Program-made: the position numbers and the translations under genes
In this document: piece by piece, positions 3,548-38,028 of the stretch
Layout: each line of letters starts with the position of its first letter
Position numbering within the stretch: the stretch's first letter is position 1
Source of the DNA: an uncultured Staphylococcaceae bacterium
GTDB taxonomy: Bacteria; Bacillota_I; Bacilli_A; ML615J-28; CAG-313
Assembly (NCBI GenBank): GCA_964368275.1
Contig: CAYJAQ010000004.1
Coordinates: 1-48,506, forward strand
Length of the DNA: 48,506 nt
Direction of reading: 5' to 3'
Notes under the pieces: model-generated
Database searches by the model: none
What the model was told of the DNA's origin: nothing
Seen by the model: the letters and a program-made list of their open reading frames with translations, nothing else

Positions 3548-3576
3548 TTTACAATAAATTTGATTTGTGCTATAAT
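3548..3576 (+). promoter_or_regulatory. sigma-A promoter with an extended -10
   Basis: TTTACA (3548-3553), a 17-nt spacer ending in TGC, then TATAAT (3571-3576). It lies upstream of the thioesterase gene. Confidence 0.6.
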
Positions 3577-3597
3577 ATAAGAGTATTTGGAGTGTGT

Positions 3598-4089
3598 ATG
3601 AAAGTAGTAAGAAAGCAATTAAATAGTGATATGTGTATTATTTGTGGTATGAATAATGATGCCGGTTTAAAAGCATCTTTTTATGAGATGGAAGATGATA
3701 CTGTTGTTAGTATATTTACTTATGCTGATAAACATCAAAGTTATCCTGGTCGTACCCATGGGGGAATGATTACTTGTATGCTCGATGAACTGATTGGCCG
3801 GGCCATTTGGATTAGTGAACCCACTACTTGGGGTGTTACTACTGATTTAAGTGTTAGGTTTTTAAAGCCGGTACCTTTAAACCAAAAACTAATGGGAGTA
3901 GGAAGAATTACAAGGAATAATCGCTTTCTTTTTGAAGCTGAGGGATATATAAAAGATGCAAATGGCACAATTTTAGCTAGTGCTAAAGGAACATATTTTA
4001 AATTAAAAGCTGACGAGATTAGTGATACAAATGTGCATGATGTGATGTTTTTAGTTGAAGATGATGTAAAAGAGATTGCACTATATTAA
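3598..4089 (+). CDS. PaaI/hotdog-fold acyl-CoA thioesterase family protein
   Basis: The sequence CIICGMNNDAGLKASFYE ... YPGRTHGGMITCMLDELIGRA resembles PaaI-type hotdog thioesterases. I moved the start to the ATG at 3598, behind a TTGGAG RBS. The track start at 3565 lies inside the promoter. Confidence 0.65.
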   Translation: MKVVRKQLNSDMCIICGMNNDAGLKASFYEMEDDTVVSIFTYADKHQSYPGRTHGGMITCMLDELIGRAIWISEPTTWGVTTDLSVRFLKPVPLNQKLMGVGRITRNNRFLFEAEGYIKDANGTILASAKGTYFKLKADEISDTNVHDVMFLVEDDVKEIALY

Positions 4090-8432: not shown

Positions 8433-8500
8433 ACTGATACTTTTAAGTTAATTTAAGTTTAATGTTTTATAATGTTATTGTAGAAAAAGAGGTGCTGACT

Positions 8501-9190
8501 TTGGATAAGGGTAGTGTGTTTAGACGATATGAGTTAAAGTTCATCATTAATAATCAGCAGTACAATGCTATTATAGATACAATTAATCAAAACATGGAGT
8601 TAGATGAGCACGGGAAAAGCTTGGTATGTAATTTATATTTTGATACTTCCAATAGTTTATTAATCCGTCGCTCGATTGAAAAGCCAGTTTACAAAGAGAA
8701 AATTCGTCTTCGTAGTTATGGTATACCTAAATCAAATGATTTAGTTTTTATTGAATTAAAGAATAAGTATGACGGAATTGTTTATAAAAGAAGAATGGCG
8801 TTGCCAGAAAAACAAGCAATGACGGGAATAATTAGTGGCCAAATTGACGATAGTAGTCAAATTGCAAAAGAGATAAATTATTTCTTGAAGCGATATGGTA
8901 AAATTGAGCCATCTGTAGTCTTGAGTTATCAGCGAAGTGCTTATTATGGGATTGGTAATCATGATTTGCGCTTGACTTTTGATACTAATTTGTTATATCG
9001 TGATTATGACTTAAACTTAACTAAAGGAATATATGGTACACCATTATTGGGCGATGATGAAATACTAATGGAAGTAAAAAGTAGCACTGCTTTTCCCCTT
9101 TGGCTAGTACATGAATTAAGTAGTAATAAAATATATAAAAGACCGTTTTCCAAATATGGAATGGCTTATCAATTAAAGAAAGAGGCATAA
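8501..9190 (+). CDS. VTC-domain (Vtc4-like triphosphate-tunnel) putative polyphosphate polymerase domain protein
   Basis: Alternating charged beta-strand motifs are present: YELKF, KEKIRLRSY, FIELKNK, YKRR and ILMEVK. The start is set at an in-frame TTG at 8501, 6 nt after AGAGGTG. The track start at 8462 overlaps a TATAAT box (8467-8472). Confidence 0.7.
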   Translation: MDKGSVFRRYELKFIINNQQYNAIIDTINQNMELDEHGKSLVCNLYFDTSNSLLIRRSIEKPVYKEKIRLRSYGIPKSNDLVFIELKNKYDGIVYKRRMALPEKQAMTGIISGQIDDSSQIAKEINYFLKRYGKIEPSVVLSYQRSAYYGIGNHDLRLTFDTNLLYRDYDLNLTKGIYGTPLLGDDEILMEVKSSTAFPLWLVHELSSNKIYKRPFSKYGMAYQLKKEA

Positions 9191-9192
9191 AC

Positions 9193-9873
9193 ATGGAAAA
9201 GATATTTGATTCTATTATAGCAACTAAAATAACTTTCTGGGGATTCATTGTAATAATGGCAGTGGCATTTTTGTTAGGAATTTGCTTAGCCGTTACGACC
9301 GCATATAAAAGTCGTTATTCTAAAAGCTTTGCAATTACCTTAGCATTGATTCCTGCTGTAGTTTCGTTAGTAATTATAATGGTTAATGGTAATTTAGGTG
9401 CAGGAATTGCTGTTGCGGGTGCGTTTAGTTTAGTAAGATTTCGCTCTTCTCCTGGCACCGCTAAAGAAATATGTGCAATTTTTGTTGCGAGTACAGCTGG
9501 TTTAGCATTAGGAATGGGATATGTCACTTATGCTGTTATCTTTGTAGTTCTAATCGCTTTTGTTTTTTGGGTGCTTTCAGTTACTAATTTTGGCAACACT
9601 TCGGTACATACAAAAGATAAGGTTCTAAAAATAACTATTCCTGAAGATTTAAACTATAGTGATGTATTTATTGATGTATTCAAGAAATATACTACCAAAC
9701 AGCAGCTTGTAAAAGTAAAAACAACTAATATGGGAAGCATGTTCAAACTAACCTACCAGATTACTCTTGTTGGAGGTATAAGCGAGAAGGAATTCATTGA
9801 CGAATTGCGCTGCTTGAATGGTAATTTAGAAGTAATGTTAAGCATAGAAGAACATTCTCAAAGTGAACTGTAA
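9193..9873 (+). CDS. DUF4956-family membrane protein
   Basis: It starts 2 nt after the VTC gene. It has about 4 TM helices, an AFSLVRFRS motif, and a roughly 90-aa soluble C-terminal domain. Confidence 0.7.
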   Translation: MEKIFDSIIATKITFWGFIVIMAVAFLLGICLAVTTAYKSRYSKSFAITLALIPAVVSLVIIMVNGNLGAGIAVAGAFSLVRFRSSPGTAKEICAIFVASTAGLALGMGYVTYAVIFVVLIAFVFWVLSVTNFGNTSVHTKDKVLKITIPEDLNYSDVFIDVFKKYTTKQQLVKVKTTNMGSMFKLTYQITLVGGISEKEFIDELRCLNGNLEVMLSIEEHSQSEL

Positions 9874-9887
9874 AAGGAGTTGATCGT

Positions 9888-11627
9888 GTGAAACTTAAAC
9901 ATAAATTTGTGATGATGCTTGTGGTATTAATAATGGTGTTGTTAGTGTCATGTGATGCCCCCAATCCAGTAGTTCCAGGCGAAGTAGAACTACCTGATAC
10001 TGATATTGCTGTTCCTAATTCTGACGATATGTTTAGTAATAAGGATAATAAGGTGTCATATGCGGAAGATGAAAAAGTTGCTATTTCACTGAATGGTACT
10101 TCAATCAGCTGTGATAGCAGCAATGTAGTAATTAATGGCCAAAATGCGACAATAACCAAAAAAGGTATCTATGAAGTAACGGGTACACTTTATGATGGCC
10201 AAATTGTTGTCAATATTGATAATGCTGATAAAGTAACCGTTATTTTAAATAATGCAAGCATAACAGCTACATCGACTGCTCCTGTATATGTCTTATCAGC
10301 CGATAAAGTGTTCCTAAATATTGTTGGGAATAATGAATTAATAACTACAAACAATTATATTGCAATAGACGATAACAATATTGATGGTACTATTTTTGCT
10401 AAAGACGATTTGACAATTAATGGAACAGGCACTCTTAGCGTGACTAGTTCGTATGGTAATGGAATTGTCGCTAAAGATGATTTGATTATTGTTGGTACTA
10501 CCCTTAATGTTAATGCTGCTGAAGATGGTTTTGATGTTAATGATAGTGTTAGAATGAATAATTGTAATGTTAATATTAAAGCTGAGCATGATGGTATTCA
10601 CTGCGAAAATGATGAAGATACTACGTTAGGCTATATTTACATTGATGGCGGAACTTACAATATTACAGGAATGCTTGATGGTATTCAGGCAAGTTCAACT
10701 ATTCAGATTATAAAAGGCAATTTTACCATAAAAACTGGTGGTGGTAGTGCTAATTCTAGCAGCAATAGTGGTGGATACTGGGGTAGTGTTACAACTGAGT
10801 CAATGAAGGGAATAAAAGCTACTAGTAATATTGTCATAACAAGTGGAGAATTAACGCTTGATACATCAGATGATGCCATTCACTCTAACGGCTCTATTCA
10901 ACTAGATGGTGGTTCTTATGATGTCACAAGTGGTGATGATGGTATTCACGCCGATAGTACTATTATTATTAACGGTGGTATAATCACTATTTCCCAAAGT
11001 TATGAAGGAATAGAAGCCCAGAATATTACGATAAATGGTGGCACAATTAAAATAAGTGCTACTGATGATGGTTTAAATGCGGCTGGTGGTAAGGATGGCT
11101 CAGGGCTTGGCCGACCGGGTTTTGGCTCATTTAATCCTAACAGTAATTGTTTTATTACAATTACGGGGGGAAATCTTTCAGTAAATGCAAGTGGTGATGG
11201 AATTGACGCAAATGGTGCTCTTTACGTTTCTGGCGGTACTACGATTGTTGAAGGGCCAACATCAAGTGGAAATGGTGCCCTTGACTACGATGGAGTTGCT
11301 CAAATTACCGGCGGTGTTTTTGTAGCAATTGGTAGCAGTGGAATGGCCCAAAACTTTGGTAATACCTCATCACAAGCATCAATTCTATATAATATGAATA
11401 GTGCTCAAAATGCTAATACCGAAATAACGATTATGGATAGCAATAATGATATTTTGTTCACACATACTGCTAAAAAACGTTATCAGTCGGTCTTAATTAG
11501 TGGACCTTTTATTACAATTGGTAAAACATATAAGCTAGCTTTAGGTACTACTACGACAAATATTACGATGTCCAGCCTAATTTATTCGATTGGTGGAGGA
11601 ATGGGTGGTGGCGGTCGACCACGCTAA
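9888..11627 (+). CDS. Lipoprotein with parallel beta-helix repeats (Cthe_2159-like carbohydrate-binding family)
   Basis: It has a GTG start after AAGGAG, and a signal peptide with lipobox LLVSC. It shows repeated DDGIHA, DDAIHS, GDGIDANG and DDGLNA turns and SGG-rich loops. The C-terminal tail is GGGMGGGGRPR. Confidence 0.7.
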   Translation: MKLKHKFVMMLVVLIMVLLVSCDAPNPVVPGEVELPDTDIAVPNSDDMFSNKDNKVSYAEDEKVAISLNGTSISCDSSNVVINGQNATITKKGIYEVTGTLYDGQIVVNIDNADKVTVILNNASITATSTAPVYVLSADKVFLNIVGNNELITTNNYIAIDDNNIDGTIFAKDDLTINGTGTLSVTSSYGNGIVAKDDLIIVGTTLNVNAAEDGFDVNDSVRMNNCNVNIKAEHDGIHCENDEDTTLGYIYIDGGTYNITGMLDGIQASSTIQIIKGNFTIKTGGGSANSSSNSGGYWGSVTTESMKGIKATSNIVITSGELTLDTSDDAIHSNGSIQLDGGSYDVTSGDDGIHADSTIIINGGIITISQSYEGIEAQNITINGGTIKISATDDGLNAAGGKDGSGLGRPGFGSFNPNSNCFITITGGNLSVNASGDGIDANGALYVSGGTTIVEGPTSSGNGALDYDGVAQITGGVFVAIGSSGMAQNFGNTSSQASILYNMNSAQNANTEITIMDSNNDILFTHTAKKRYQSVLISGPFITIGKTYKLALGTTTTNITMSSLIYSIGGGMGGGGRPR

Positions 11628-11699
11628 AAACAACTTTAATAATTTCCTTTATATTAGCACTCCAATTTTGGGGTGCTTTATTATGCACAGTGTGATTAG

Positions 11700-11728
11700 T
11701 TGACTATTTCGCTAAAAACTGCTATAAT
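11700..11728 (+). promoter_or_regulatory. Near-consensus sigma-A promoter of the acyl-activation operon
   Basis: TTGACT (11700-11705), a 17-nt spacer, then TATAAT (11723-11728). Confidence 0.75.
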
Positions 11729-11770
11729 ATACTAGTAATTGACACAAAATTTCACAAGTAAGAGGATAGC

Positions 11771-13714
11771 ATGGAAAGAGTTTTGAAGATTGTACGTGAA
11801 TCTGTGAAAAAATTGAATCAAAGCGACTATACATTTAAAGCTATTTTTGATGTGATGTTTGGCTTTAGTGATAATATTATTGCTGAAAAACTTGTAGGTA
11901 CATCAATTAGCTATACTACGTATCATGAATGTCAAGAACTAATTGAAAAGACCTCAGCTTATTATCAAATGATTTTTCAACATATTCCAACAGAATCATA
12001 TATTGGTTTAAAATTAGGAAATTCTCTTGAATGGATAGTAACATTTTGGTCCCTTCTTCAAAGTGGCTATCGTCCAGTCTTAATAAATACCCAATTAGAT
12101 AGTGAAATGATTACTAATGTTTTAACAAAATTAGCTGTTAAAGCGGTAATTACAGATTATCCGGAATTAGGTGATAATGAGTATAATGCCTATAAATTAA
12201 TCGAAGAGGCGAAAAACTTTCAATCGACAGGTTCTGCTCCGAAATGGTCAAATAGTATTGTTCTATCAACATCAGGAACATCAGGTCCTGCTAAGATTTG
12301 TCTGTATGAAGGAAAAGCGATTTGCATGCAAATCTTAAAGAGTTGGTCAATTGTTAAGCAAAATAAAGACATTCGTTCCTTCCATAAAGGCAAAATGAAA
12401 CTTTTAGCCTTTTTGCCATTTTATCATATCTATGGCTTATCAGCTGTTTTACTATGGTTTGGTTTTTTTGGAAGAACTTTTGTTTTCTTGAAGGATAATA
12501 ATCCCGAGAATATCACGAGAACTTGTCAACTCCATCAAGTTACACATGTATTTGCTGTGCCAATTCTTTGGAATACAGTTGCTCAGTCAATCACCAAACA
12601 AGCAGCACGCGATAATTTGTCCGAACGTTTAAAAAAAGGATTAGCAATAAGTGCTAAATGGCAAAACACATTCCCTCGTTTGGGGCGTTTTTTAGCAAGC
12701 AAAGTATTATTCAAAAAAGTCCAAAAAAAGGTATTTGGTCCTTCAATTAAGTTTTGTATTTCTGGTGGAGGGTATGTTCTTGAAGATACTTTAAAAATAG
12801 TAAATGCCATTGGTTATTCCCTTCATGTCGGTTATGGTATGACGGAAATTGGGATAACATCGGTCGAACTTGCTAGTAATTATAGCCAACTAATAAAAGG
12901 ATCAATCGGTCAGCCTTTAAAGGGAATTACTTATCAGATAGTCAATAATGAATTACAAGTAAAAGGTGATTCACTTTTTACCGCAATCTTTCAAAATGAG
13001 TGTTTTGTTCTACGAAGGGAAGAGGAATGGTTTAAAACGGGTGATATTGCCTATCAAGATTCCAAGGGTAATTATTTTATTAATGGACGTTTAGATGATA
13101 TTATTATCGGAGAAAACGGCGAAAATATTAATCCTGATGATTTAGAACGCTATTTTACACTAGATTATGTTAAACGTTTTTCGATATTAGGCGTTCCCAA
13201 CGAAGATGGTAATCTTGAAGTTACACTAGTTGCGCAGATTAGTAAACAGGTAACTAATCATCAAGTTAGAAAACTATTTCAAAATATTAATGCCATCAAT
13301 GCGACAATGCCTATTCATCAACAAGTACGTCGCATTATTGTGACTACTGATAGTATAGCACTTGAAGAATCTTTAAAAGTAAATCGAAAAAAATTGATTA
13401 GTAAAATATTAAAAAATGAGCTTCATGAAGTTGAATTTAAGACTGAGGAAGCAAATAATATTAATTATGAAGATGCACGTATTACCTCAATAAAAAAAAG
13501 TCTAAAGGAAACGATTGCGGCAGTACTAACTAAACAAGCTGAGGACATTCATGATGATGATCACTTTATTATGGATTTAGGGGGTAATAGCCTTGAATAT
13601 TTTGTTCTCATTTCTCGAATTGAAGAGGCTTTTAATATTAAAATTACTTTTACTAATAATACAGTTTTAAATACAGTGAATGAGTTTTGTTTATATATTG
13701 ACAAGAATGAGTAG
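11771..13714 (+). CDS. ANL-superfamily adenylating enzyme fused to a C-terminal carrier (PCP/ACP) domain
   Basis: Motifs present are STSGTSGPAK (P-loop), GYGMTE, FKTGDIA and NGRLDDIIIGENGENINP. The C-terminal roughly 80 aa carries DLGGNSLEY, a phosphopantetheine attachment motif. Confidence 0.85.
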   Translation: MERVLKIVRESVKKLNQSDYTFKAIFDVMFGFSDNIIAEKLVGTSISYTTYHECQELIEKTSAYYQMIFQHIPTESYIGLKLGNSLEWIVTFWSLLQSGYRPVLINTQLDSEMITNVLTKLAVKAVITDYPELGDNEYNAYKLIEEAKNFQSTGSAPKWSNSIVLSTSGTSGPAKICLYEGKAICMQILKSWSIVKQNKDIRSFHKGKMKLLAFLPFYHIYGLSAVLLWFGFFGRTFVFLKDNNPENITRTCQLHQVTHVFAVPILWNTVAQSITKQAARDNLSERLKKGLAISAKWQNTFPRLGRFLASKVLFKKVQKKVFGPSIKFCISGGGYVLEDTLKIVNAIGYSLHVGYGMTEIGITSVELASNYSQLIKGSIGQPLKGITYQIVNNELQVKGDSLFTAIFQNECFVLRREEEWFKTGDIAYQDSKGNYFINGRLDDIIIGENGENINPDDLERYFTLDYVKRFSILGVPNEDGNLEVTLVAQISKQVTNHQVRKLFQNINAINATMPIHQQVRRIIVTTDSIALEESLKVNRKKLISKILKNELHEVEFKTEEANNINYEDARITSIKKSLKETIAAVLTKQAEDIHDDDHFIMDLGGNSLEYFVLISRIEEAFNIKITFTNNTVLNTVNEFCLYIDKNE

Positions 13715-13720
13715 GTAAGT

Positions 13721-14350
13721 ATGAATAAATTTATATTGGGGTTTGTAAAAGTAACAGGAGTACTTCCTGCTGTTATTTACTTAAAACGGAAAGTATATTA
13801 TGAGAATAAAGAAATACAAGGTAAGAAGCTTACCGGTAAAACAATGATTGTCTCTAATCATACTGGCTTGCGCGATTATGTAACTTATCTTTTTCTCTTT
13901 TTCCGCTATTCATTGTGGTTTTTAGCAGCGGAAGTGTTATACAAAAAGCCAAATAATGCAAGACTGATTAAACACTTAGGAGCTATTCGCGTTAATCGGG
14001 ATACCCATGAGGTTGATTTTTTTGCCAATGCCATTAGTGTTTTAGAAGAAAATAAGATACTTTTGGTTTTTCCAGAAGGACGTATTTCGGCGACAAAAAA
14101 ACTATTACCATTTAACACAAGTGCCGCGTATATTGCTTATATGGCAAATGCAAAAATAGTACCAGTTGTTACGGATGGTAATTATGGTTTCTTTAAAAGA
14201 GTCCATGTAATGATTGGAGAACCGCTTTATTTGCGCGATTACCTTGATAAACAATATTTAGAAAAAAATGATATCATCAAGTTAAATGATATTTTACGTA
14301 ATAGAATACTAGAATTACAGCAGAAATTAGCTAATGAGTTAAAAAAATAG
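13721..14350 (+). CDS. PlsC/LPLAT-family acyltransferase (copy 1)
   Basis: It has an N-terminal hydrophobic anchor, an HX4D motif (NHTGLRD), and FPEGR. Confidence 0.85.
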   Translation: MNKFILGFVKVTGVLPAVIYLKRKVYYENKEIQGKKLTGKTMIVSNHTGLRDYVTYLFLFFRYSLWFLAAEVLYKKPNNARLIKHLGAIRVNRDTHEVDFFANAISVLEENKILLVFPEGRISATKKLLPFNTSAAYIAYMANAKIVPVVTDGNYGFFKRVHVMIGEPLYLRDYLDKQYLEKNDIIKLNDILRNRILELQQKLANELKK

Positions 14351-14358
14351 GAGGACCC

Positions 14359-15054
14359 ATGGCAACTACGAAAAAAAGAATCTATCCCAATTGTCGGTTC
14401 TTCCGGATATTTAATCTTAAAATGTTTGTGCTAGATTTTGTCAAAATAACCGGTTGGTTACCATTTTTATTAGTATATCGACCTAAATATATTTTTCAAA
14501 ATAAAAAGTTGCAAAACCGGATAATCAAAGGTCGGGCAATTGTGATTGCTAATCACAATAGTTTAATGGATCCCATTTGTTTATGCTATGCTTTTGCATT
14601 CCGCCGGATTCGTTACCTTGCTGCGGAAGTGCTTTTTGAAAAAAGTCGTCTATTCGCTTGGATGATTCGATCGGTTGGCTGCTTACGAATTAATCGGAAT
14701 ATCGTTGATTTAAAAAGTATGCGCCGCTCGCTTGATGAACTAAATGAAGATGGTGTTATTAGCTTATTTCCTGAAGGAAAATTAAGTAGCGATAATAGTA
14801 CAATTCAATCTTTTAAATCCGGTGTTATTTTATTAGCTCTTAAATCTAATGCACCAGTTATTCCTGTTTATATTGCTTATACCAATAAATCATTTCACCG
14901 AAAGCACATTGTTATCGGTGAACCAATTGATATCACAAAGTACTGTGCTAATAAAATTCCCACAATTGCGGAAATTGAGAAGCTTAGTAACGTTTTAAGA
15001 GAAGCCGAAGAGAAATTGCTTAATTTATATGAGCAAACTGTAAAGAAGGATTAA
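14359..15054 (+). CDS. PlsC/LPLAT-family acyltransferase (copy 2, paralogue of copy 1)
   Basis: It has an HX4D motif (NHNSLMD) and FPEGK. The architecture and the shared AAEVL(Y/F) block match copy 1. Confidence 0.85.
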   Translation: MATTKKRIYPNCRFFRIFNLKMFVLDFVKITGWLPFLLVYRPKYIFQNKKLQNRIIKGRAIVIANHNSLMDPICLCYAFAFRRIRYLAAEVLFEKSRLFAWMIRSVGCLRINRNIVDLKSMRRSLDELNEDGVISLFPEGKLSSDNSTIQSFKSGVILLALKSNAPVIPVYIAYTNKSFHRKHIVIGEPIDITKYCANKIPTIAEIEKLSNVLREAEEKLLNLYEQTVKKD

Positions 15055-15063
15055 GGAAGTAAT

Positions 15064-16545
15064 ATGAAGACAACATTTTCAGATTTCAGTAAATATACTG
15101 ATCAAGAAACATTTAAGAAAATTGTTTATTTACCAACAATAGCTGAATTGTGGCAAAAAGCAGTTAATGATAATGCTCAAGAATATGCTTTTTATTATCA
15201 AGATGAAGTAATTACTTATGAACAAGCTGAGAATGATGTTGCTAAACTACGCTTTCAACTAGCAAAATTAAAGTTAGCAAAAAGGGCTCATATTGGCATA
15301 CTATTAAAGAATGATTATAGTTTTGTCAAGAGTTTCTTAGCAGTAACTACTTTAGGTTATGTTGCGGTTTTACTTCCATATCAAACGCCTAAAGAAGATA
15401 TTCAATATAATGTAGCGTTTTGCGACATTGAAAAACTAATTTACGATAATTCGTCATTAGGTAAGATTAGTGAATTTTCGGCGGAATTTCTGGACAAATT
15501 GATTAATATAGATAACCTACCACTCGAAGATTATCTGCCTTGCCAAAAATGTCAAAAGACCGATCCTGCAGTTATTATTTTTGCTCACGGGACGGGTGTT
15601 TCATGTCAAGCAACTTTGCTAAATCACGGTGCTGTAACAAGAGGAGTAGTGAATGGCTGCCTAGGTTATCACGATGTTTTTAAACAACGCTATCTTTCAG
15701 TAATTCCTCTAACTCATGTTTTTGGGTTAATTAGGAATTTATTAACTAGTATTTATACCGGTTCAACTTTGGGTTTCTGTCCTGACGTGATGCGACTTTT
15801 CCGAGTTATGAAAACATTTAAACCAACAATTTTGGTTATTGTACCTGAACTTGCTAAAATGATTCTCACGGTAATTAAACAAAGAGGTATTGATAATGTT
15901 GGCGGCGAATTGAAAAACATTATTTGTGGTGGAGCCGAAGTTGGTGAAGAACTACCCAAAGCATATAAAGAATTTGATATTGAAATTTTCCCTGGTTACG
16001 GTTTGACTGAAGCTGCTAATATGGTTAGTGGTAATCCTAACAGTATCGACTATCCCCTTTCGGTTGGTCTTCCTTTTCCAGAACAAGAGTTGAAGATAGT
16101 GAATGATGAACTTTTGATAAAAGGTGATAACGTGATGGATGGTTATTATAACGATTCTGATGCTACCAATAAAGTGCTAGTAGACGGTTGGTTAAAAACT
16201 GGTGATTTAGCACGCTTTGATGAATTAGGTCAACTCTATATTATTGGCCGAAAGAAGAATATTATTATTTTTGGTAATGGTGAAAATATTGCGCCAACAG
16301 CATTAGAGCATCTCATAAATAAAGATGACGCAGTGAGAGATTCGCTAGTATATGCTAGCACCAGTGCTTTAGGTGTCGCAACCATAGTTGCCGAAGTGTT
16401 AATGAATGAAGTCTATCTACATAAACAAAATGTACTAGACAAAGAAGCTTACTTTGAAAATTTACTAAATGAAGTAAATAAGAAATTGCCTACTTATGCT
16501 AGAATTAGCCAAATAATAATTCGTACAAATGATTTTTCTCGCTGA
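15064..16545 (+). CDS. ANL-superfamily AMP-ligase homologue with a degenerate P-loop
   Basis: GYGLTEA, LKTGDLA and IGRKKNIIIFGNGENIAP are present. The P-loop position reads FAHGTGVSCQA (no Lys), and the protein ends before the usual C-terminal catalytic Lys. Confidence 0.8.
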   Translation: MKTTFSDFSKYTDQETFKKIVYLPTIAELWQKAVNDNAQEYAFYYQDEVITYEQAENDVAKLRFQLAKLKLAKRAHIGILLKNDYSFVKSFLAVTTLGYVAVLLPYQTPKEDIQYNVAFCDIEKLIYDNSSLGKISEFSAEFLDKLINIDNLPLEDYLPCQKCQKTDPAVIIFAHGTGVSCQATLLNHGAVTRGVVNGCLGYHDVFKQRYLSVIPLTHVFGLIRNLLTSIYTGSTLGFCPDVMRLFRVMKTFKPTILVIVPELAKMILTVIKQRGIDNVGGELKNIICGGAEVGEELPKAYKEFDIEIFPGYGLTEAANMVSGNPNSIDYPLSVGLPFPEQELKIVNDELLIKGDNVMDGYYNDSDATNKVLVDGWLKTGDLARFDELGQLYIIGRKKNIIIFGNGENIAPTALEHLINKDDAVRDSLVYASTSALGVATIVAEVLMNEVYLHKQNVLDKEAYFENLLNEVNKKLPTYARISQIIIRTNDFSR

Positions 16546-16579
16546 ATGATTTAGATTCGCGAGATGAGATGAGGACAAT

Positions 16580-16816
16580 ATGATATTTAATAAACTAAAA
16601 GAAATATTTATTGAGATGTTGGGCAGTGCTAATGTCCCTACTGTAATCACCGAAGATTCAACATTATTTAGTGATTTGGGATTTACATCAGTTACAATGC
16701 TGTACATGGCGATGGCGATTGAAGAAACTTTTAATATTGAAATTGATAATTTTGAGGTTAACCAATTTTGCACTGTCCGTGATGTCTGTAGCTATATTGA
16801 AAATGCCCAAAAATAA
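16580..16816 (+). CDS. Stand-alone acyl/peptidyl carrier protein
   Basis: The 78-aa acidic product has a DLGFTSVTMLYMAMAIEE motif with Ser at the attachment position. Confidence 0.8.
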   Translation: MIFNKLKEIFIEMLGSANVPTVITEDSTLFSDLGFTSVTMLYMAMAIEETFNIEIDNFEVNQFCTVRDVCSYIENAQK

Positions 16817-17499
16817 TGGGGTTTATAATGGATAAAATTAAAATTTTAATTGCTGATGTTTCGGAATTGTCTATCGACGATGCTAAACATTTTGAATATG
16901 TCTCTGCTGATGTTCTAGAACGTCTCACTGATTATCAAATTGAACTTGATCAAAAACGCACATTAGGGGCAGAACTCTTGTTAATCAGAGCTCTTAAGGA
17001 TGACAAAAATATAATTAAAAGCAGAATTAATTATCAATATAATGAGTATAAGAAGCCATTTCTAAAAGATTTTCCCTCTTATCACTTCAATAAAAGTCAT
17101 AGTGGGGTTTATGCCGGTGTTACGCTTGCTGAAATTGAAGTAGGTTTAGACATCGAACAGATTCGCCCGATTAACCGAAAGATAATTCACAAAACGATGA
17201 ATTCTCTTGATGCAAAAAAATGCGAAGTGATGAATGATCAAGAATTTGCAGATTATTTTTTCCATGATTGGACAATAAAAGAGAGTTATCTTAAAACTTT
17301 AGGGGTAGGTATCACAAAGGACTTACGTCAAGTGATTATTGATTATACTAATAAAACTGTTTGTATGGAAGGCTACAAAGTAGGAAATTTTCATTCATTA
17401 AAAATTGCGGATTTCTATTACTTAGCTGTGACTTATTTTGGTGATAAACGTGATTACACTATTTTTGAAGTAAGTCTAACACAGCCTAGATTTCATTAG
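16816..17499 (+). CDS. Sfp-type 4'-phosphopantetheinyl transferase
   Basis: A TAATG overlap links it to the carrier protein gene. Motifs are SHSGVYAGV, VGLDIEQI and WTIKESYLKTLG. An alternative start exists at 16828. Confidence 0.8.
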   Translation: MGFIMDKIKILIADVSELSIDDAKHFEYVSADVLERLTDYQIELDQKRTLGAELLLIRALKDDKNIIKSRINYQYNEYKKPFLKDFPSYHFNKSHSGVYAGVTLAEIEVGLDIEQIRPINRKIIHKTMNSLDAKKCEVMNDQEFADYFFHDWTIKESYLKTLGVGITKDLRQVIIDYTNKTVCMEGYKVGNFHSLKIADFYYLAVTYFGDKRDYTIFEVSLTQPRFH

Positions 17500-17510
17500 T
17501 GGAGGTAAAT

Positions 17511-17960
17511 ATGACTAATTATGCTCAAATAAAGCAACAACTTTATGCCCTAACAGAAGGAGTTGATAACTCGATTAGTAATTATGCTAATACAGCAGCT
17601 TTGCTTTTTAATGAACTTGCTGATGTTAGTTGGGTAGGCTTTTATTTTGTTGATGATGATGAGTTAATATTAGGACCCTTTCAAGGCTTACCTGCTTGTG
17701 TTAGAATTAAGAAAGGCCATGGTGTATGTGGTGAAGCATGGGTAAAAGGGCAGACCTTAGTCATTCCAAATGTTTGCGAATATGCCAATCATATTGCTTG
17801 TGATAGCCGTTCAATGGCCGAGATTGTAATTCCAATTAGAAAGAAAAATGCGATTGTTGGGGTAATGGATATTGATAGTTATCAAGAGAAGCGTTTTACA
17901 AGTGTTGATCAAAAAGGACTAGAATCATTAGTCGAAGTCATTGAGAACTTTATCAAGTAG
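17511..17960 (+). CDS. GAF-domain protein (free methionine-R-sulfoxide reductase MsrC/YebR-like)
   Basis: Motifs are WVGFYF, LGPFQGLPACVRI, GHGVCGEAW, HIACDSRSMAEIVIPI and GVMDIDS. The start is the ATG at 17511, behind GGAGG. Confidence 0.75.
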   Translation: MTNYAQIKQQLYALTEGVDNSISNYANTAALLFNELADVSWVGFYFVDDDELILGPFQGLPACVRIKKGHGVCGEAWVKGQTLVIPNVCEYANHIACDSRSMAEIVIPIRKKNAIVGVMDIDSYQEKRFTSVDQKGLESLVEVIENFIK

Positions 17961-17967
17961 TTAATAG

Positions 17968-17995
17968 GCAAAGTGCAAAGCACTTTCCTTTTTTC
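17968..17995 (+). terminator. Rho-independent terminator closing the seven-gene operon
   Basis: AAAGTGC-AAA-GCACTTT followed by CCTTTTTT. Confidence 0.75.
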
Positions 17996-21767: not shown

Positions 21768-22652
21768 ATGAAAAGTAATTGTTTTCGTGACCTAATAACA
21801 ACTAAATATAATGAAGCAAATGTTGTTCTAACGGGTATTCCCTATGACAAAGGGTGCTCATGTGAAAAAGGGGCTGCCGATGCACCACGGGTAATGCGTG
21901 AACTATCAAGCTTTTTACCAGCGTGTTCGATGAATGGTGATATCCTAACAAAAATAAAAATGTATGATACAGGTGATATTTTTGCTAAAGACATCCCAGA
22001 GTTAATTGAAAAATGCCACAATTTGTTTGATGATGATAAATTTCAGCTAATATTAGGTGGTGACCACTCAGCGACAATTGCAACGCAAAAAGCTTTTTTG
22101 AAGCGGACCGAAAAACACAACAAGATTCCAGCAATTATTCATATTGATGCACATCCTGATTTTTGTGCTTTCTACGATGGTAGCGCGTATTCACATGCGT
22201 GTACTAACTATCAAGCAGTTTGTAATGGCTATAAGCCAGATAATATTGTGCTGGTCGGAATAAGAGGATACGAAATACAGGAAGTAGAATACTTCTTGAA
22301 ACATCCTGAAATCACTATTTTTAATGCTAGTTCCATTAATAGAAATGGCATTGAAGAGGTAATTGCAAAAATTCTTGCCCGGTTTAATGATGATTATGAA
22401 ATCTATTTATCATATGATATTGATGCTAATGATCCTAGCTTTGCACCAGGCACTGGAACACCCGAAGCTTTTGGTTTAGCGTCTACCCAAATCCTAAAAC
22501 TGATCATGTCAGTTGTAAAAAATTTGAATATTACAGCGATGGATATCGTTGAAGTATCGCCACCACATGATAGCAATAATATGACATCATGGCTTGCGTT
22601 AAAAACTATTTATGAAGTTTTTAATGTATTAATAAATAAAAATAATTTTTAG
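21768..22652 (+). CDS. Ureohydrolase (agmatinase/arginase fold) protein
   Basis: Mn-ligand motifs are present: LGGDHSAT, IHIDAHPDF and SYDIDANDPSFAPGTGTPE. Confidence 0.8.
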   Translation: MKSNCFRDLITTKYNEANVVLTGIPYDKGCSCEKGAADAPRVMRELSSFLPACSMNGDILTKIKMYDTGDIFAKDIPELIEKCHNLFDDDKFQLILGGDHSATIATQKAFLKRTEKHNKIPAIIHIDAHPDFCAFYDGSAYSHACTNYQAVCNGYKPDNIVLVGIRGYEIQEVEYFLKHPEITIFNASSINRNGIEEVIAKILARFNDDYEIYLSYDIDANDPSFAPGTGTPEAFGLASTQILKLIMSVVKNLNITAMDIVEVSPPHDSNNMTSWLALKTIYEVFNVLINKNNF

Positions 22653-22661
22653 GAGAAAATT

Positions 22662-23468
22662 ATGAAACATATAACTTTAGATTGCTATGGCTCGGTTCAA
22701 CATTCACTGGATAGTATGATTTTAATTAATCAATTATTAACTAATTTAACATACCAAGTTGGGCTCAATCCAATTACCCCTCCACATATTATTCCTTACT
22801 ATTATGGAAAAGTAAAAGAAGATATTGGTATTAGTGGTTATGTGCTCTTAGAAGGTGGGCATGTTACTATCCACACTTTCCCAATGCGTGAATGCTATTT
22901 TGTTGATGTCTTTTCTACTTCTGATTACGATGAAAAGGCTATTTACAAGTTTTTCATGGAAAATCTACCATTTAATGAAAAATTGTCGAATTTCTTTATC
23001 CGCAATCGTGCTGTCCAAGCATTTGATGTTTTGCCATATGATCCTAACATCGATTTTGGCCCTCATGTAATGGGAGAGATAAAGACCCAATGTGATATTT
23101 CAATGGAACAAATGTTTGATTTCCTTGAGAAAATTGTTGTAGAAATCAACATGGATCCAATAATTAGAGCTGTCGTTGTTAAGAATGTTACCGAAAACCC
23201 AGATTATTTATCTGGTATTATCATTATTGCTCAAAGTCACATTTCTTTACATTATGAGTATGCTACTAAACGTATTTATGCTGATTTATTCTCTTGTGTA
23301 GCATTTGATTATACAGTTGTTGATAAATACTTTGAACAACTAGGTCAAATAGTTTCTAGCATTTTAGTGCCACGTGGTACAAAACATATTTATAAAGTAA
23401 AGTCAAGCGTTGATAATGCTGAATTGTTAGCCAATACAAAATGGCAACGTGTAATCAAATGTAAATAA
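22662..23468 (+). CDS. Tandem-duplicated AdoMetDC (SpeD/SpeH class 1)-like pyruvoyl-enzyme homologue
   Basis: Two roughly 130-aa halves each align to a class-1 AdoMetDC protomer. Half 1 reads LLEGGHVTIHTFP, with the processing Ser replaced by Gly. Half 2 reads IIAQSHISLHYEY, with Ser192 retained (nt 23235-23237). Confidence 0.7.
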   Translation: MKHITLDCYGSVQHSLDSMILINQLLTNLTYQVGLNPITPPHIIPYYYGKVKEDIGISGYVLLEGGHVTIHTFPMRECYFVDVFSTSDYDEKAIYKFFMENLPFNEKLSNFFIRNRAVQAFDVLPYDPNIDFGPHVMGEIKTQCDISMEQMFDFLEKIVVEINMDPIIRAVVVKNVTENPDYLSGIIIIAQSHISLHYEYATKRIYADLFSCVAFDYTVVDKYFEQLGQIVSSILVPRGTKHIYKVKSSVDNAELLANTKWQRVIKCK

Positions 23469-29125: not shown

Positions 29126-29192
29126 AATATGTTGAAAACACTGTCGGAATATGTTATAATTAAGCGACATTTTAATGAAAAGGAGTACAAAA

Positions 29193-31079
29193 ATGGTTAA
29201 GAGATATAAAACACTTGATAAAACTTGGAAAGAAATCTTGTTTGCTATGTCTGGTTTAGGACCAAACCTATTAATGGTATTGATGGGAGCATATTTTTCT
29301 GATGCAATTAATCCTGCCGCTTTACCAACTGGCTCATTACAAGCTATTTCCACAACTTGCTACATTATGCCGTTAGTCTTTCCGATATTATGGTTTTTAG
29401 CAAAAGCTTTTGATGGATTAATTGATATTCCGCTAGCTGCCGTTACTGACAATTTAAAGACAAAATGGGGTAGAAGAAGACCACCAATTGTTGTGTGCAT
29501 TTTACCAATGATTATTTCTTATGCACTTTGTTGGATGCCGATCTTTGGAGAAAACCAATTAGCTAATACCATTTGGATTGCCGCTTGGGCTTTGTTATTC
29601 TTTACAACTTATACAATGTGTTTGATTGCCTTTTATGGAAGTTTATCAACAGTATGTGTAAATGAGAGTCAAAGACTACGGGTTTCTTCGTTTAAAGCTT
29701 TCTTTGATACAATTTCTTATTGCTTAGTGTATGCTTTAGTTCCCGTCCTATTAGGAGCTTTTAACATTCACATTGATAAATTTGTTTTCTTACTATTACC
29801 ATTAATGCTATCAATGCTAATTCCAATCTTTATGATAAAAGAAGGAGATAAGTTTGAAGCAAAATGTAAAGAAAATGGGATTGATATTACACCACTTGCT
29901 GAAGAAAAACGCGTATCAATTTGGGAAAGTATTAAATTAACTTTTACCAATAAAATATTCTTAAAATGGCTTTTAGTTAACTGCTGCACATTTTTCGGTC
30001 TACAGATGTTCTTAGTCGCCATGAATGCGATGATATTAGGTGGTATGGGTATGAGTGGCGCCCAAATGGCAATACTTAATACTTGTGCATTTGCACCAGT
30101 TCCATTAATGCTATATGGCTTTAACAAATTAAAAGCTAAAAAAGGTATGCGCTTTACTTATCAAACTTGCTTATTGTCATTCGCTATTTGTATTTTAGGC
30201 TTTGATATAGCTAGTTTATATGTTATGGGACCTGATAATGTTACCTTGCAGATCATTGTTGGCTGTATCGGTGGTGTAATTGGATCTTGGGCAATTGGTT
30301 CATTCTTCATGATGCCATATATGATTCCAGCTCAAATATCTTCAATTGAAGAAAAATTAACAGGTAAGAACCATTCAGCTATGTATTTTGCTGCTCAAGC
30401 GGTTTCGACATCAATTATTGGAGCAGTTGCTGCTTCCTTAGTATATGAAAATGTTAAGATGCTATTTATCACAAAAGCTGGTGATGGTATCAAATGGGCT
30501 CATAATTTTGAAGAAGCTGCTGAACTATTTGGCACAACAGCAGATAAAGTATATAATCTTGGTACGCTATTAGTACCAATCATTGTTTCAGTATTCTGTG
30601 TTCTTGGTTTCTTCTTGTGTTTCTTAATGCCTAAAAATTATTCACCAAAAGTGGTAGCTAAAGAACTAGGCTTAGAAAAAGAATACGAAGCTAATAAAGA
30701 TCAGTTTGAAGAAGAAGACGAAAAGATCTATGATTCAGAGAGTATTATTGTTATGCTGACTTTATGGATCTTATCAGGTACTATTTTTGGTATTTTCTGG
30801 CGTTACGGAATTATTGAAAAAGTCAATAAACTTTCACCAATTAAGTCACGCCGAGTACATTGGTTGTTGTCAGTTTTGATTCCACCATATTTTGCATATG
30901 TTGTCTTTATGACTAACAAACGCTTAATAGCAGAAGCAAGAGCTAAAAATATGGTTGTGAAAGACCTTAGTGTGTTATACTTAATTTTAGCTTTATTTGG
31001 CTTAAATATCGTTTCTTATATAATAATGCAAAACCAATTAAACGGTATTTTAAAGGTAGTTGAAGCTTCTGAGAATTAA
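29193..31079 (+). CDS. GPH/MFS-family sugar:cation symporter fused to a C-terminal 3-TM DUF4234-like module
   Basis: It has the GPH motif DGLIDIPLAAVTDNLKTKWGRRRP and about 12 TM helices. An acidic linker follows (EEEDEKIYDSE), then an extra hydrophobic module (nt 30633-31076). The start is the ATG at 29193, 8 nt after AAGGAG. Confidence 0.75.
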   Translation: MVKRYKTLDKTWKEILFAMSGLGPNLLMVLMGAYFSDAINPAALPTGSLQAISTTCYIMPLVFPILWFLAKAFDGLIDIPLAAVTDNLKTKWGRRRPPIVVCILPMIISYALCWMPIFGENQLANTIWIAAWALLFFTTYTMCLIAFYGSLSTVCVNESQRLRVSSFKAFFDTISYCLVYALVPVLLGAFNIHIDKFVFLLLPLMLSMLIPIFMIKEGDKFEAKCKENGIDITPLAEEKRVSIWESIKLTFTNKIFLKWLLVNCCTFFGLQMFLVAMNAMILGGMGMSGAQMAILNTCAFAPVPLMLYGFNKLKAKKGMRFTYQTCLLSFAICILGFDIASLYVMGPDNVTLQIIVGCIGGVIGSWAIGSFFMMPYMIPAQISSIEEKLTGKNHSAMYFAAQAVSTSIIGAVAASLVYENVKMLFITKAGDGIKWAHNFEEAAELFGTTADKVYNLGTLLVPIIVSVFCVLGFFLCFLMPKNYSPKVVAKELGLEKEYEANKDQFEEEDEKIYDSESIIVMLTLWILSGTIFGIFWRYGIIEKVNKLSPIKSRRVHWLLSVLIPPYFAYVVFMTNKRLIAEARAKNMVVKDLSVLYLILALFGLNIVSYIIMQNQLNGILKVVEASEN

Positions 31080-35292: not shown

Positions 35293-38028
35293 ATGAAAGA
35301 ATATAAAGATACATTATTAATGATGAAAACGGATTTTCCGATGCGTGGTAATTTAGGTGTAAACGAACTGCCAATTCAATCCATGTGGGAAAATGAAAAA
35401 ATATATGAAAAAGCCCTTAAGAAAAATGAAAATAAAACGAAGTTTTTCTTACATGATGGTCCACCATATGCTAATGGTAGTATTCATATTGGGCATGCTT
35501 TAAACAAAGTATTAAAAGACTTCATTATTCGTTATAAGACAATGAGTGGCTTTTACGCACCGTATCAACCTGGTTGGGATACACATGGTTTGCCGATTGA
35601 AACAGCCCTTACTAAAAATGCGAAAGTAAATCGTAAAGAAATGAGTGTTGTTGCTTTTCGTCGTTTATGCGAAGAATATGCATTGGAACAAGTTGATATT
35701 CAAAAGAAAGGCTTTCAACGTTTAGGTATTTTAGGTGATTGGCAAGATCCATATATCACCCTAAATAAACATTATGAAGCAGAACAAATTCGGGCATTTG
35801 GTGAAATGGCCAAGAAGGGCCTAATCTTCAAGGGTTTAAAACCCGTTTATTGGTCACCATCATCAGAGACTGCTTTAGCAGAGGCCGAAATTGAATATCA
35901 AGATGTTAAAAGCCCCGCCATTTATGTAGCGTTTAAAGTTGTTGATGGTAAAGATGTCATTTCCAAAGATTGTGAATTAGTTATTTGGACAACAACACCA
36001 TGGACAATTCCCGCTAATTTAGCAATTTGTGCTGGTCCCAATTATGAATATGTTGTAGTTGATGCTAACAGCCGTTATTTCGTTATTGCTAAAGAGTTAT
36101 TAGAAGCTTTTGCTAATGAAGCTGGCTTTGAATCATATACTATATTGAGAACAGTTAAAGGTGCTGATTTAGAAGGAATTACTTATCAACATCCTTTATA
36201 TGATCGCATTTCACCAGTTATTTTAGGTGACCATGTCACTTTAGAAACGGGAACAGGTTTAGTACATACAGCACCTGGTCATGGTGCTGATGACTTCATT
36301 GTTGGTAAAAAATATAATCTTGATATTTTATGCCCAGTTGATGCTCAAGGTCGAATGACTGAAGAAGCGGGCGAATTCGTAGGGTTAACTACCGATGAAT
36401 GTAATAAAGCAATTACTAAACGTTTAGAAGAGGAAAATGCGCTTATTAAATTATCATTTATTACGCACAGTTATCCCCATGATTGGCGTACTAAAAAACC
36501 AATTATTTTTCGGGCTACGCCTCAATGGTTCGCCTCAATTGAAGCTTTTAAAGAAGATATTCTAAAAGCTATTCAAGGAGTAAAATGGGTTCCTTCTTGG
36601 GGTGAATTACGAATTTCTAATATGATTAAAGATCGCCAAGATTGGTGTATATCGCGTCAACGTGTTTGGGGTGTTCCAATCCCTGTGTTTTATGCTGAAG
36701 ATGGCACGCCAATTCTTGATTCTGATGTTATAAACCATGTATCTGATTTATTTGATTTATATGGGTCTAATATTTGGTTTGAGAAAGATGCTAAAGAATT
36801 ATTACCAGTTGGTTATACACATCCTAATAGTCCTAATGGTATATTTACCAAAGAAACTGATATTATGGATGTTTGGTTTGATTCTGGTACTAGCCATCAT
36901 AGTGCCTTACTTCAAAAGTATGGCACATGTTTCGCAGATATCTATTTAGAAGGTTCTGACCAATATCGTGGTTGGTTCAATTCTAGTATATCTACTAGTG
37001 TTGCTTTAACTGGTAAAGCCCCTTATAAGACTGTTATTACGCATGGCTTTTCCCTTGATGGTGAAGGCCGTAAAATGAGTAAATCTTTAGGAAATGTTGT
37101 TGACCCTGTTGGTGTATGCAAAGAATTAGGCGCAGATATTTTCCGCTTATGGGTTGCTAGCACTGATTATCAAGCAGATTTTAGAATTTCCAAGGAAATC
37201 TTAAGTCAAGCGAGTGAAGCATACCGGAAAATCCGAAATACCTTCCGCTTTATGTTAGGTAATTTGTTTGATTTTGATCCGGAAAAAGATAGTTTATCTT
37301 ATCAAGAATTAGGGGAAGTTGATCAGTATATATTGTGTAAAGCTAATGAATTAGTTGCACATGTAATTAATTCATATGAAAAATATGATTTTGCTGATGT
37401 TTATCGGACTATTCTTACTTTTATGACTAATGATTTGTCTTCCTTCTATTTAGATTTCACGAAAGACATTCTTTATATCGAAAAAGCAGATGCTAAATCA
37501 CGTCGTAGTATTCAAACGGTTATTTACAAAGTGCTTATGGCATTATTAGAGCTACTTACCCCAATTTTGCCTCATACCACGGAAGAAGTTTATAGCTATG
37601 TTTTAGGTAAGAAAGTGGAAAGTATCTACTTATGTGATATGCCAGAATCTGTTCAATATGCTAATGCCAATGAACTTATGGCAAAATTTGGGCAATTTAT
37701 GGCATTACGAGATGATATACTAAAAGCGTTAGAAGCAGCTCGCAATGAGAAAATTATTGGCAAGAGCTTTTCCGCTCATGTTACAATATATCCAAATGCT
37801 CGCGTATTAAAAGTGATTAACGCGATGAACTTTAATTTAGCTCAAGTCTTCATTGTTTCAAAATTTACAGTAGCTACTAGCCCTGTTAATGGAACGACCT
37901 ATGAATCTGGCGAAATTTTAGTTGAACCGGCTCAAGGTTCAATCTGCAGTCGTTGTTGGCAAGTTGTTGACCACATAGATGACGATGAATTATGCCCACG
38001 CTGCCATGATATTGTAACAAACAAATAA
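35293..38028 (+). CDS. ileS: Isoleucine--tRNA ligase
   Basis: It has a HIGH motif ([10 protein letters not shown]), KMSKS, and a C-terminal zinc-finger (CSRCW ... CPRCH). Length is 911 aa. Confidence 0.95.

Follow-up and report, generated by a model that had tools for sequence, protein, structure and literature searches.

In E. coli, Aas joins in one polypeptide a fatty-acid-activating enzyme of the ANL family of adenylating enzymes and an acyltransferase of the lysophospholipid acyltransferase (LPLAT) family with the motif HX4D, draws its thioester donor from the housekeeping acyl carrier protein (ACP), and is paired with the MFS_1-type transporter LplT. Another route, FakA/FakB-PlsX-(AcpB)-PlsC of Firmicutes, begins with a kinase: FakAB converts exogenous fatty acids to acyl-phosphate, from which PlsX makes acyl-ACP. 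In DltABCD and AlmEFG, an adenylase charges a small carrier of its own, from which a membrane acyltransferase aminoacylates envelope lipids or polymers. LplT/Aas has been presented as a Gram-negative system (PMC11416262), and in E. faecalis exogenous fatty acids have an auxiliary ACP of their own (PMC6509188). Here we describe a seven-gene operon of a Gram-positive host, located in positions 1 to 48,506 of contig CAYJAQ010000004.1 (assembly GCA_964368275.1; this whole stretch is called the window). Its genes, g1 to g7, encode an adenylase-carrier fusion (A-T), two LPLATs, a second ANL protein (ANL2), a stand-alone ACP, an Sfp-type phosphopantetheinyl transferase (PPTase) and a free methionine-(R)-sulfoxide reductase (Table 1). 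Sequence comparisons suggest, with a probability of about 0.55, that the operon encodes a carrier-dependent system in which free long-chain fatty acids, probably of exogenous origin, are activated and then esterified onto a membrane-type lipid acceptor. The gene content, the intact catalytic motifs in g1, g2, g3, g5 and g6, the co-conservation of the genes and their linkage to fakA, degV and plsX are direct observations. By analogy, the operon is best read as working like the Aas/LplT re-acylation of lysophospholipids; its relation to Aas is remote, however, and it is no member of that family. Full-text literature searches on Aas/LplT, acyl-ACP synthetases, Fak/PlsX, LRAT and NRPS-like gut clusters found no published description of such a cassette, in line with an earlier annotation made from the sequence alone (the first-pass annotation), which knew of no characterised cluster with this composition.

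The likeness to Aas/LplT consists of an LPLAT with HX4D, a fatty-acid type of ANL enzyme, a carrier thioester as donor and, in relatives of the cassette, an adjacent MFS transporter gene. In BLAST comparisons with Aas of MG1655, g2 has motif III, FPEGRI(S/T), in common with it (27% identity over 67 aa), g3 aligns with the acyltransferase domain from HX4D to motif IV (27% over 120 aa), and g4 is 24% identical over 343 aa. NCBIfam models for Aas and LplT-Aas are also among the matches of g2, g3 and g4. However, the cassette keeps as separate proteins what is fused in Aas, and its two acyltransferases are not redundant with each other; in place of the housekeeping ACP it has carriers of its own (a fused carrier domain, T, and a dedicated ACP) with a dedicated Sfp-type PPTase; the transporter belongs to the MFS_2/GPH type; and most cassettes add a cysteine enzyme similar to LRAT. 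The first-pass annotation had called the operon a duplicated, disaggregated Aas-like machine. The private carriers, the PPTase often encoded with them and the MFS gene that takes the position of LplT in relatives agree with the Aas-like part, while the identity of only 24-27% and a transporter unlike LplT do not.

The FakA/FakB route presumably serves the same end, with exogenous fatty acids reaching lipids by way of a carrier thioester. It differs in that the cassette activates by adenylation and Fak by a kinase, that the LPLATs of the cassette stay below the cut-off of the PlsC family, and that fak and plsX genes are not present in the window. The operon shares the dedicated adenylase and carrier with DltABCD and AlmEFG, but it has neither an MBOAT domain (DltB) nor a Lip_A_acyltrans domain (AlmG-type), and DltA structures are only distant matches of the g1 family (E ~1e-15). 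Activation of amino acids in the manner of Dlt or Alm was rejected because both ANL proteins have a His-type A4 motif and neither transferase domain is encoded.

Genes of the operon and their motifs

The first-pass annotation had listed seven genes on the same strand with gaps of -1 to 34 nt, and the open reading frames (ORFs) are found as described, with Pfam in agreement on every domain. From g1 to g7 the spacings are 6, 8, 9, 34, -1 and -1 nt, the last one being 11 nt if g7 begins at ATG 17511. A Shine-Dalgarno-like sequence precedes six of the seven genes; the exception is g6, whose start overlaps the stop of g5 (TAATG). The motifs quoted in the first-pass annotation are all present (DLGGNSLEY in g1, NHTGLRD and NHNSLMD as the HX4D motifs of g2 and g3, FPEGR and FPEGK, and the TAATG overlap), and Pfam detects ketosynthase, ketoreductase, dehydratase, enoylreductase, condensation or thioesterase domains in none of the seven proteins, as that annotation had also reported.

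The A-T protein g1 is the anchor of a conserved cassette. It has more than 1500 homologues (35-47% identity), of which the most informative names are 'AMP-binding protein' and, for a single homologue, 'long-subunit acyl-CoA synthetase/acyl carrier protein'. In g1 every residue that is invariant in the family is conserved, including Ser607 of DLGGxSLxY; the ANL P-loop (TSGTSGPAK) and the A10 lysine are both in place, K536/R539 being (nearly) invariant in the family. The A4 motif of the family, LPFYH(I/V)(F/Y)G, carries the His of acyl- and aryl-acid enzymes, whereas amino-acid adenylases carry Asp. The best structural matches of the family profile (MenE, FadD13 and 4CL) point to a generic acyl/aryl-acid ANL enzyme. 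Residues 268-323 have no counterpart in MenE and may resemble the extra segment of long-chain synthetases of the ACSL/FAA1 type.

For both LPLATs, g2 (first position, P1) and g3 (second position, P2), T. maritima PlsC (5kym) is the sole solved structure matched (E 3e-6 and 5e-9, respectively), and the alignments run across motifs I-IV. HX4D, G.I.V(D/N)R and FPEGRIS are intact in g2. Motif III reads FPEGKLS in g3, and the arginine of the EGTR motif in PlsC (FPEGTRS) is conserved in neither protein. Their scores for TIGR00530 (AGP_acyltrn) are 59.6 and 73.2, below the cut-off of 102.95.

The stand-alone carrier g5 scores only below the cut-offs of the NCBIfam ACP models (52.6 vs 71) and hence is not a canonical AcpP. 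The following gene, g6, encodes a PPTase of the Sfp type, which aligns with B. subtilis Sfp (1qr0; E 7e-19) including the motifs GxDIE and W..KES.

The second ANL protein, g4, has lost two catalytic motifs that its relatives keep. Its P-loop position reads AHGTGVSCQA, whereas each of the 12 orthologues shows T(G/S/A)GT(T/S)xxxK, and its C-terminus (...NDFSR-TGA) stops ~8-14 residues short of the orthologue ends. All 12 orthologues finish with ...R(S/T)xSMKIIR and, within it, the A10 lysine that ANL enzymes need for adenylation; g4 thus has neither a P-loop nor this lysine. After its TGA the frame continues as ATG ATT TAG ATT CGC (M-I-stop-I-R), and the sequence suggests that this is a broken remnant of SMKIIR, left by recent nonsense mutations. 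Recoding of the TGA was considered and rejected, as read-through would give ...FSRWMI-stop and the lysine would still be lacking. On the other hand, g4 is 49% identical to its orthologues, no lower than the other genes of the set, and its A4 motif is also of the His type. The protein is constrained but is probably no efficient adenylase. The first-pass annotation was right to count two ANL homologues, but 'two adenylating enzymes' is probably overstated for this copy.

The last gene, g7, matches E. coli YebR (1vhm) over residues 4-146 (E 7.9e-39), with C..GVCG..HIACD aligned, and therefore represents the fRMsr/MsrC family. A GGAGG precedes ATG 17511, which makes this start appear more likely than GTG 17499. 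Among the 88 loci scanned, a g7 gene lies beside the cassette only on the contig of the window. The earlier identification as a GAF/MsrC-like protein is thus borne out, but not its place in the system: g7 is probably co-transcribed, yet probably a passenger. A role as sensor or regulator was dismissed because the protein is an fRMsr enzyme without co-conservation with the cassette.

The cassette in other genomes

With one genome scanned per species, relatives of g1 were detected in at least 535 species-level genomes. Nearly all are metagenome-assembled genomes (MAGs) of gut or rumen Bacillota, and the hosts include Oscillospiraceae, Acutalibacteraceae, Lachnospiraceae, Christensenellaceae, Bacilli, Acholeplasmatales and 'Mollicutes'. 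We fetched 88 loci and searched their ORFs with the window proteins; in 82 neighbourhoods, spanning -6 to +9 kb, the ORFs were clustered and representatives checked against Pfam. The prevailing order in these 82 loci is A-T, P1, P2 (or a fusion of the two), ACP and an LRAT-like protein. A-T, P1, P2 and ACP form a conserved cassette, which usually has the LRAT-like gene and sometimes an MFS_2, PPTase or ANL2 gene. Co-conservation elsewhere, on which the first-pass annotation had staked its proposal, is found, and the gene set is therefore more than a chance assembly.

A neighbour-joining tree of 139 LPLAT units falls into two clean clades. One of them, P1, contains every first-position unit, including g2 and the N-terminal halves of fusions, and the other, P2, every second-position unit, including g3 (62 of 62 loci for each). 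Both clades retain HX4D, G.I.VDR and FPE(G), but their consensus at motif III is FPExRLP in P1 and FPEGxI in P2, the latter without a conserved basic residue. Often the two LPLATs are fused into one protein of ~430 aa, whose domains reach the AGP_acyltrn cut-off when summed (131 vs 103). As the sequences have it, P1 and P2 are ancient and functionally distinct paralogues in fixed order, with no recent duplication.

For co-occurrence we counted those 61 loci whose sequence extends at least 2.5 kb downstream; 54 of them have two LPLATs and 7 have P1 only. The ACP is present in 51/54 of the former and 1/7 of the latter, the LRAT-like gene in 42/54 and 1/7, ANL2 in 8/54 and 1/7, an adjacent PPTase in 17/54 and 0/7, and the MFS_2 transporter in 10/54 and 6/7. 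Six of the seven P1-only loci lack both ACP and LRAT, and all six have MFS_2 beside the A-T gene. These profiles suggest two modules: A-T with P1 (with or without a transporter), and P2 with ACP (with or without LRAT, ANL2 and PPTase). To call the machine 'duplicated' is then misleading, given two ancient and distinct LPLATs and a core with one adenylase, to which ANL2 is added in only 8 of the 54 two-LPLAT loci.

Several genes of fatty-acid uptake adjoin the cassette. FakA is found in 46 of the 82 neighbourhoods, DegV/FakB in 42 (often as two copies) and PlsX in 27, along with a family 2 glycosyltransferase (GT2) in 23. The linkage with fakA, degV and plsX indicates that the cassette takes part in exogenous fatty-acid and glycerolipid metabolism and not in secondary metabolism. 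It also fits the first-pass suggestion that the acids are exogenous, since these genes lie beside the cassette in most genomes. Moreover, Fak or PlsX genes are nearby in 2/9 cassettes with ANL2 vs 42/46 without it (Fisher p 5e-5, kinship ignored), which fits ANL2 and FakAB/PlsX being alternative acyl suppliers for the stand-alone ACP.

The same neighbours bear on another explanation, namely that the cassette makes phosphatidic acid (PA) from glycerol-3-phosphate (G3P) and privately carried exogenous fatty acids, with P1 as G3P acyltransferase producing lysophosphatidic acid (LPA) and P2 as LPA acyltransferase producing PA. Such a route would parallel or replace PlsY/PlsC and would not repair lysolipids. 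The fixed order of two distinct LPLATs, often as one fusion, speaks for it, as do the alignment of both proteins to PlsC, the summed score of the fusion, the adjoining PlsX, FakA and DegV genes, and the occurrence of the cassette in reduced-genome Bacilli, Acholeplasmatales and 'Mollicutes' MAGs. However, motif III is without the EGTR arginine of PlsC, P1 having the Aas-like FPEGRI(S/T) and P2 no conserved basic residue; single LPLATs are below the AGP_acyltrn cut-off; P1-only cassettes pair with a GPH-type and not a G3P transporter; and a nearby plsX would imply that the ordinary PlsX/PlsY/PlsC route is present in these genomes too. We consider synthesis of PA unlikely as the function of the cassette.

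An A-T didomain, a stand-alone ACP and an Sfp-type PPTase are features that genome miners score as 'NRPS-like' (nonribosomal peptide synthetase-like), and the cassette might instead be a specialised-metabolite cluster whose product is no bulk membrane lipid but a small one with two acyl groups, for example an acylated amino acid, an acylated sugar or a glycerate ester, and is possibly secreted. Carriers that are not canonical AcpP, a transporter of the glycoside-symporter family, GT2 in 23 loci and weak NCBIfam matches to OlsA and OlsF could be cited in its favour. Yet, beyond the A-T didomain, condensation, reductase and thioesterase domains are in none of the seven proteins, and an OlsB-type N-acyltransferase domain is likewise absent from them. 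The OlsA scores (26.2 and 21.0 vs a cut-off of 300) and the OlsF score (33.4 vs 620) are 10-30 times under the cut-offs, and the presence in at least 535 species with largely conserved fakA/degV/plsX synteny fits core lipid metabolism better than a patchily distributed secondary one. A specialised product of this type is accordingly improbable.

The LRAT-like protein of the relatives (~135 aa) matches Pfam LRAT at 8e-24 and keeps the His and the Cys motif of that family (H...NCEHF). The resemblance to vertebrate LRAT/PLAAT and S. aureus LnsA, which are permuted NlpC/P60 acyltransferases, concerns this gene of other genomes and not the window. Members of the LRAT family form acyl-thioester intermediates and have phospholipase A1/2 as well as O- and N-acyltransferase activities, while their bacterial relatives are poorly understood (PMC7387801). 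Further neighbours are a patatin in 4 loci and, in ~40 loci, an alpha/beta hydrolase of ~320 aa with an N-terminal membrane helix, which lies directly upstream of A-T or after P1 (for example in L020 and L031; Table 1). A crude pattern match at the presumed nucleophile elbow of this hydrolase gave 10 members with Cys and 29 with Ser.

These linked enzymes enter into one further explanation, an option already raised in the first-pass annotation: the T domain of g1 may carry the acceptor, a hydroxy acid that is O-acylated while tethered and then freed by a hydrolase as an acyloxy-acyl product resembling estolides or fatty acid esters of hydroxy fatty acids. One adenylase and two carriers in the core would suit this, and the LRAT-like protein or the membrane alpha/beta hydrolase, one of which is almost always linked, could release the product. 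But LPLATs are not known to act on acceptors that are tethered to a carrier, no release enzyme is found in the window, and an analogue of Aas/LplT is the simpler reading of those P1-only cassettes that have a transporter. A tethered acceptor seems to us scarcely credible.

Certain cassettes have gained unusual members. In an Oscillospiraceae MAG (L001, and also in L002), genes for a radical-SAM activase and a glycyl-radical enzyme similar to pyruvate formate-lyase (PFL) lie between ANL2 and ACP. A Pullichristensenella MAG (L079) has a duplicated or expanded cassette with two A-T genes, an LPLAT fusion of 840 aa and an ANL2 of 628 aa.

Proposed route of lipid acylation

Under the favoured reading, fatty-acid activation followed by esterification of a lipid acceptor, the g6 PPTase would first convert the T domain of g1 and the g5 ACP to their holo forms. 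The A domain of g1 would then adenylate a fatty acid and load its own T domain, as its domain order and motif type suggest. P1 (g2) may take acyl-S-T as donor, because P1-only cassettes have A-T and a transporter without ACP, and P2 (g3) may take acyl-S-ACP, given the co-occurrence of P2 and ACP. Elsewhere, ANL2 or FakAB with PlsX would probably load the ACP. As g4 looks defective in adenylation, g5 would in this genome have to be loaded by g1 in trans or by a PlsX encoded elsewhere. The two transferases might finally acylate two positions, or two lyso-species, of a glycerolipid, and could do so with two different acids in succession, as the first-pass annotation imagined. Candidate acceptors are lysophospholipids, lyso-glycolipids and G3P/LPA, and a GPH-type MFS transporter might deliver or flip the substrate.

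A gene for such a transporter is present in the window, 11 kb downstream of the operon, between genes for a transglutaminase-like surface protein and a cyclophilin. It scores 625 bits against the in-cassette transporter of a relative (L007) and is 58% and 66% identical to those of L089 and L040, which exceeds the identity of every enzyme of the set except the ACP compared with L089 (59%). In the closest relatives (L007, L089, L090 and L009) the transporter is located inside the cassette, either between A-T and P1 or after ACP. The window protein, a divergent member of the GPH/MFS_2 family, is a probable partner of the operon, though outside it. An orthology with LplT was rejected, since the profile of the transporter has a probability of 0.15% against E. 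coli LplT (hhalign). The cassette transporters of L007 and L089 have an N-terminal YccF inner-membrane domain, and Pfam reports none in the window orthologue.

Several observations weigh against the favoured reading. The relation to Aas is remote, and all NCBIfam equivalog scores are far below the cut-offs (PRK08043: g2 32.7 and g3 22.6 vs 886; PRK08633: g3 56.8 and g4 83.6 vs 1221). In the homologue lists, no member of the g1 family bears a functional name. Because g4 appears catalytically impaired, the second loading route is left without a clear enzyme in this copy. The transporter belongs to the sugar-symporter (GPH) family and might carry a glycoside instead; neither the protein nor its family profile matches any solved structure at E <= 0.01, so we assign it to none of Mfsd2a, MelB and LtaA. 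LRAT, fakA, degV and plsX are absent from the window and the next ~10 kb of the contig. Finally, the neighbourhood statistics ignore shared ancestry.

A six-frame search of the 48.5-kb window likewise found no LRAT, FakA, DegV, PlsX, alpha/beta hydrolase or patatin. The window copy is a trimmed, derived and partly degenerate version of the cassette, and the first-pass picture needs change in that the usual LRAT-like member was not found and the transporter is detached. One may ask whether what is left of the cassette in this genome is decaying and has at best little function. The loss of the P-loop and A10 lysine in g4, with stop codons inside its apparent old C-terminus, the lack of LRAT, the transporter moved out of the operon and the lack of a Fak/PlsX context all point that way. 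However, g1, g2, g3, g5 and g6 are full-length with every family-invariant and catalytic residue in place, the similarity of g4 to its orthologues matches that of the other genes, and 12/54 two-LPLAT loci are without LRAT and 46/54 without ANL2, neither being essential to the cassette. Decay to this degree thus looks very improbable.

More tentatively than the favoured reading of carrier-dependent lipid acylation, and with less than even chances, the cassette may represent a widespread Gram-positive 'Lands-cycle-like' acyl editing, in which P1 and P2, each fed by its own carrier (T or ACP), put host or dietary fatty acids on defined positions of imported or damaged lyso-lipids. According to the authors of a 2023 study, there is no evidence in bacteria of a remodelling cycle of deacylation and re-acylation, and S. 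aureus recycles lysophosphatidylglycerol through LpgD and PlsC (PMC10404611). If acyl editing is true, hundreds of gut Bacillota species would have such a cycle, possibly as protection against host phospholipases. If the favoured reading is true, many uncultured gut and rumen Bacillota would possess a second, adenylation-based fatty-acid route beside FakAB/PlsX, with carriers of its own and two transferases specific for a position or a substrate. Such a route would matter for how gut bacteria use dietary and host lipids, for how well they tolerate host phospholipase A2 and inhibitors of fatty-acid synthesis, and for the question whether any remodelling of lipid acyl chains takes place in bacteria. 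The favoured reading also provides a testable annotation for more than 1500 proteins labelled only 'AMP-binding protein'. For the window itself, whose copy from an uncultured lineage of Bacilli is trimmed and in part degenerate, the value is lower.

Signals, neighbouring genes and host

The first-pass annotation had bracketed the operon by one promoter and one terminator. Both patterns are present (Table 1), the promoter-like site 42 nt before the start of g1 and in a 143-nt gap, after another hairpin. However, promoter-like matches total 40 vs 40.7 expected from shuffles, and since the pattern counts are not above chance, the operon's promoter-like and terminator-like sites are plausible by position only. 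Rfam and tRNA scans of the window gave a single tRNA-Arg, and no riboswitch or leader near the operon.

Table 1. Coordinates of the operon, of other features of the window and of selected features in related loci
Feature	Sequence	Positions	Strand	Description	Basis
Operon	Window	11771-17960	+	seven closely packed genes	ORF listing
g1	Window	11771-13714	+	647 aa, AMP-binding + PP-binding (A-T)	Pfam (8.7e-32; 4.7e-10)
g2	Window	13721-14350	+	209 aa, Acyltransferase PF01553, LPLAT P1	Pfam (1.9e-17)
g3	Window	14359-15054	+	231 aa, Acyltransferase PF01553, LPLAT P2	Pfam (3.2e-21)
g4	Window	15064-16545	+	493 aa, AMP-binding, second ANL (ANL2)	Pfam (3.3e-43)
Frame after g4 stop	Window	16543-16579		M-I-stop-I-R	
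g5	Window	16580-16816	+	78 aa, PP-binding, stand-alone ACP	Pfam (2.3e-9)
g6	Window	16816-17499	+	227 aa, ACPS + AASDHPPT_N, Sfp-type PPTase	Pfam
g7	Window	17499/17511-17960	+	149-153 aa, GAF, free methionine-(R)-sulfoxide reductase	Pfam
Promoter-like site	Window	11700-11728	+	TTGACT-17-TGcTATAAT	11/12, top of 40 matches
Upstream terminator-like hairpin	Window	11656-11677		ends preceding gene group	
Terminator-like hairpin + T run	Window	17970-17995 (hairpin 17970-17986)	+	7-bp stem, 3 GC pairs; weak	
MFS_2 (GPH-type) transporter	Window	29175-31079	+	634 aa	Pfam MFS_2 (2.5e-30)
4HBT-fold thioesterase	Window	3565-4089	+		
Gene group upstream of operon	Window	8462-11627	+	VTC-domain, DUF4956 and Cthe_2159-family proteins	
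Polyamine-synthesis genes	Window	21768-23468	+	arginase-family + AdoMet decarboxylase	
IleRS	Window	35293-38028	+	isoleucyl-tRNA synthetase	
GerA operon	Window	43017-46469		germination	
Alpha/beta hydrolase	L020	9003-9986			
Alpha/beta hydrolase	L031	12566-13516			
Radical-SAM activase + PFL-like enzyme	L001	16225-19235			
Expanded cassette	L079	9872-18478			
Transporter with YccF domain	L007	7735-9645			
Transporter with YccF domain	L089	2117-4027			

Besides the operon, the window contains a thioesterase gene of the 4HBT fold, 8 kb upstream. It is not found beside the cassette in other genomes and is therefore probably unrelated to the operon. Directly upstream of the operon are genes for a VTC-domain protein, a DUF4956 membrane protein and a Cthe_2159-family protein of 579 aa with a hydrophobic N-terminal leader, a group that ends at the upstream hairpin. 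Further downstream, the adjoining arginase-family and AdoMet (S-adenosylmethionine) decarboxylase genes are followed by TrkH/TrkA genes for potassium uptake.

The host is an uncultured and undescribed, probably spore-forming lineage of the class Bacilli. The window has a GC content of ~33% and includes a GerA germination operon. Its isoleucyl-tRNA synthetase (IleRS) has at most 76% identity to any protein in the collection, and the best named matches are from 'Bacilli bacterium' and 'Erysipelotrichaceae bacterium' MAGs (70-71%).

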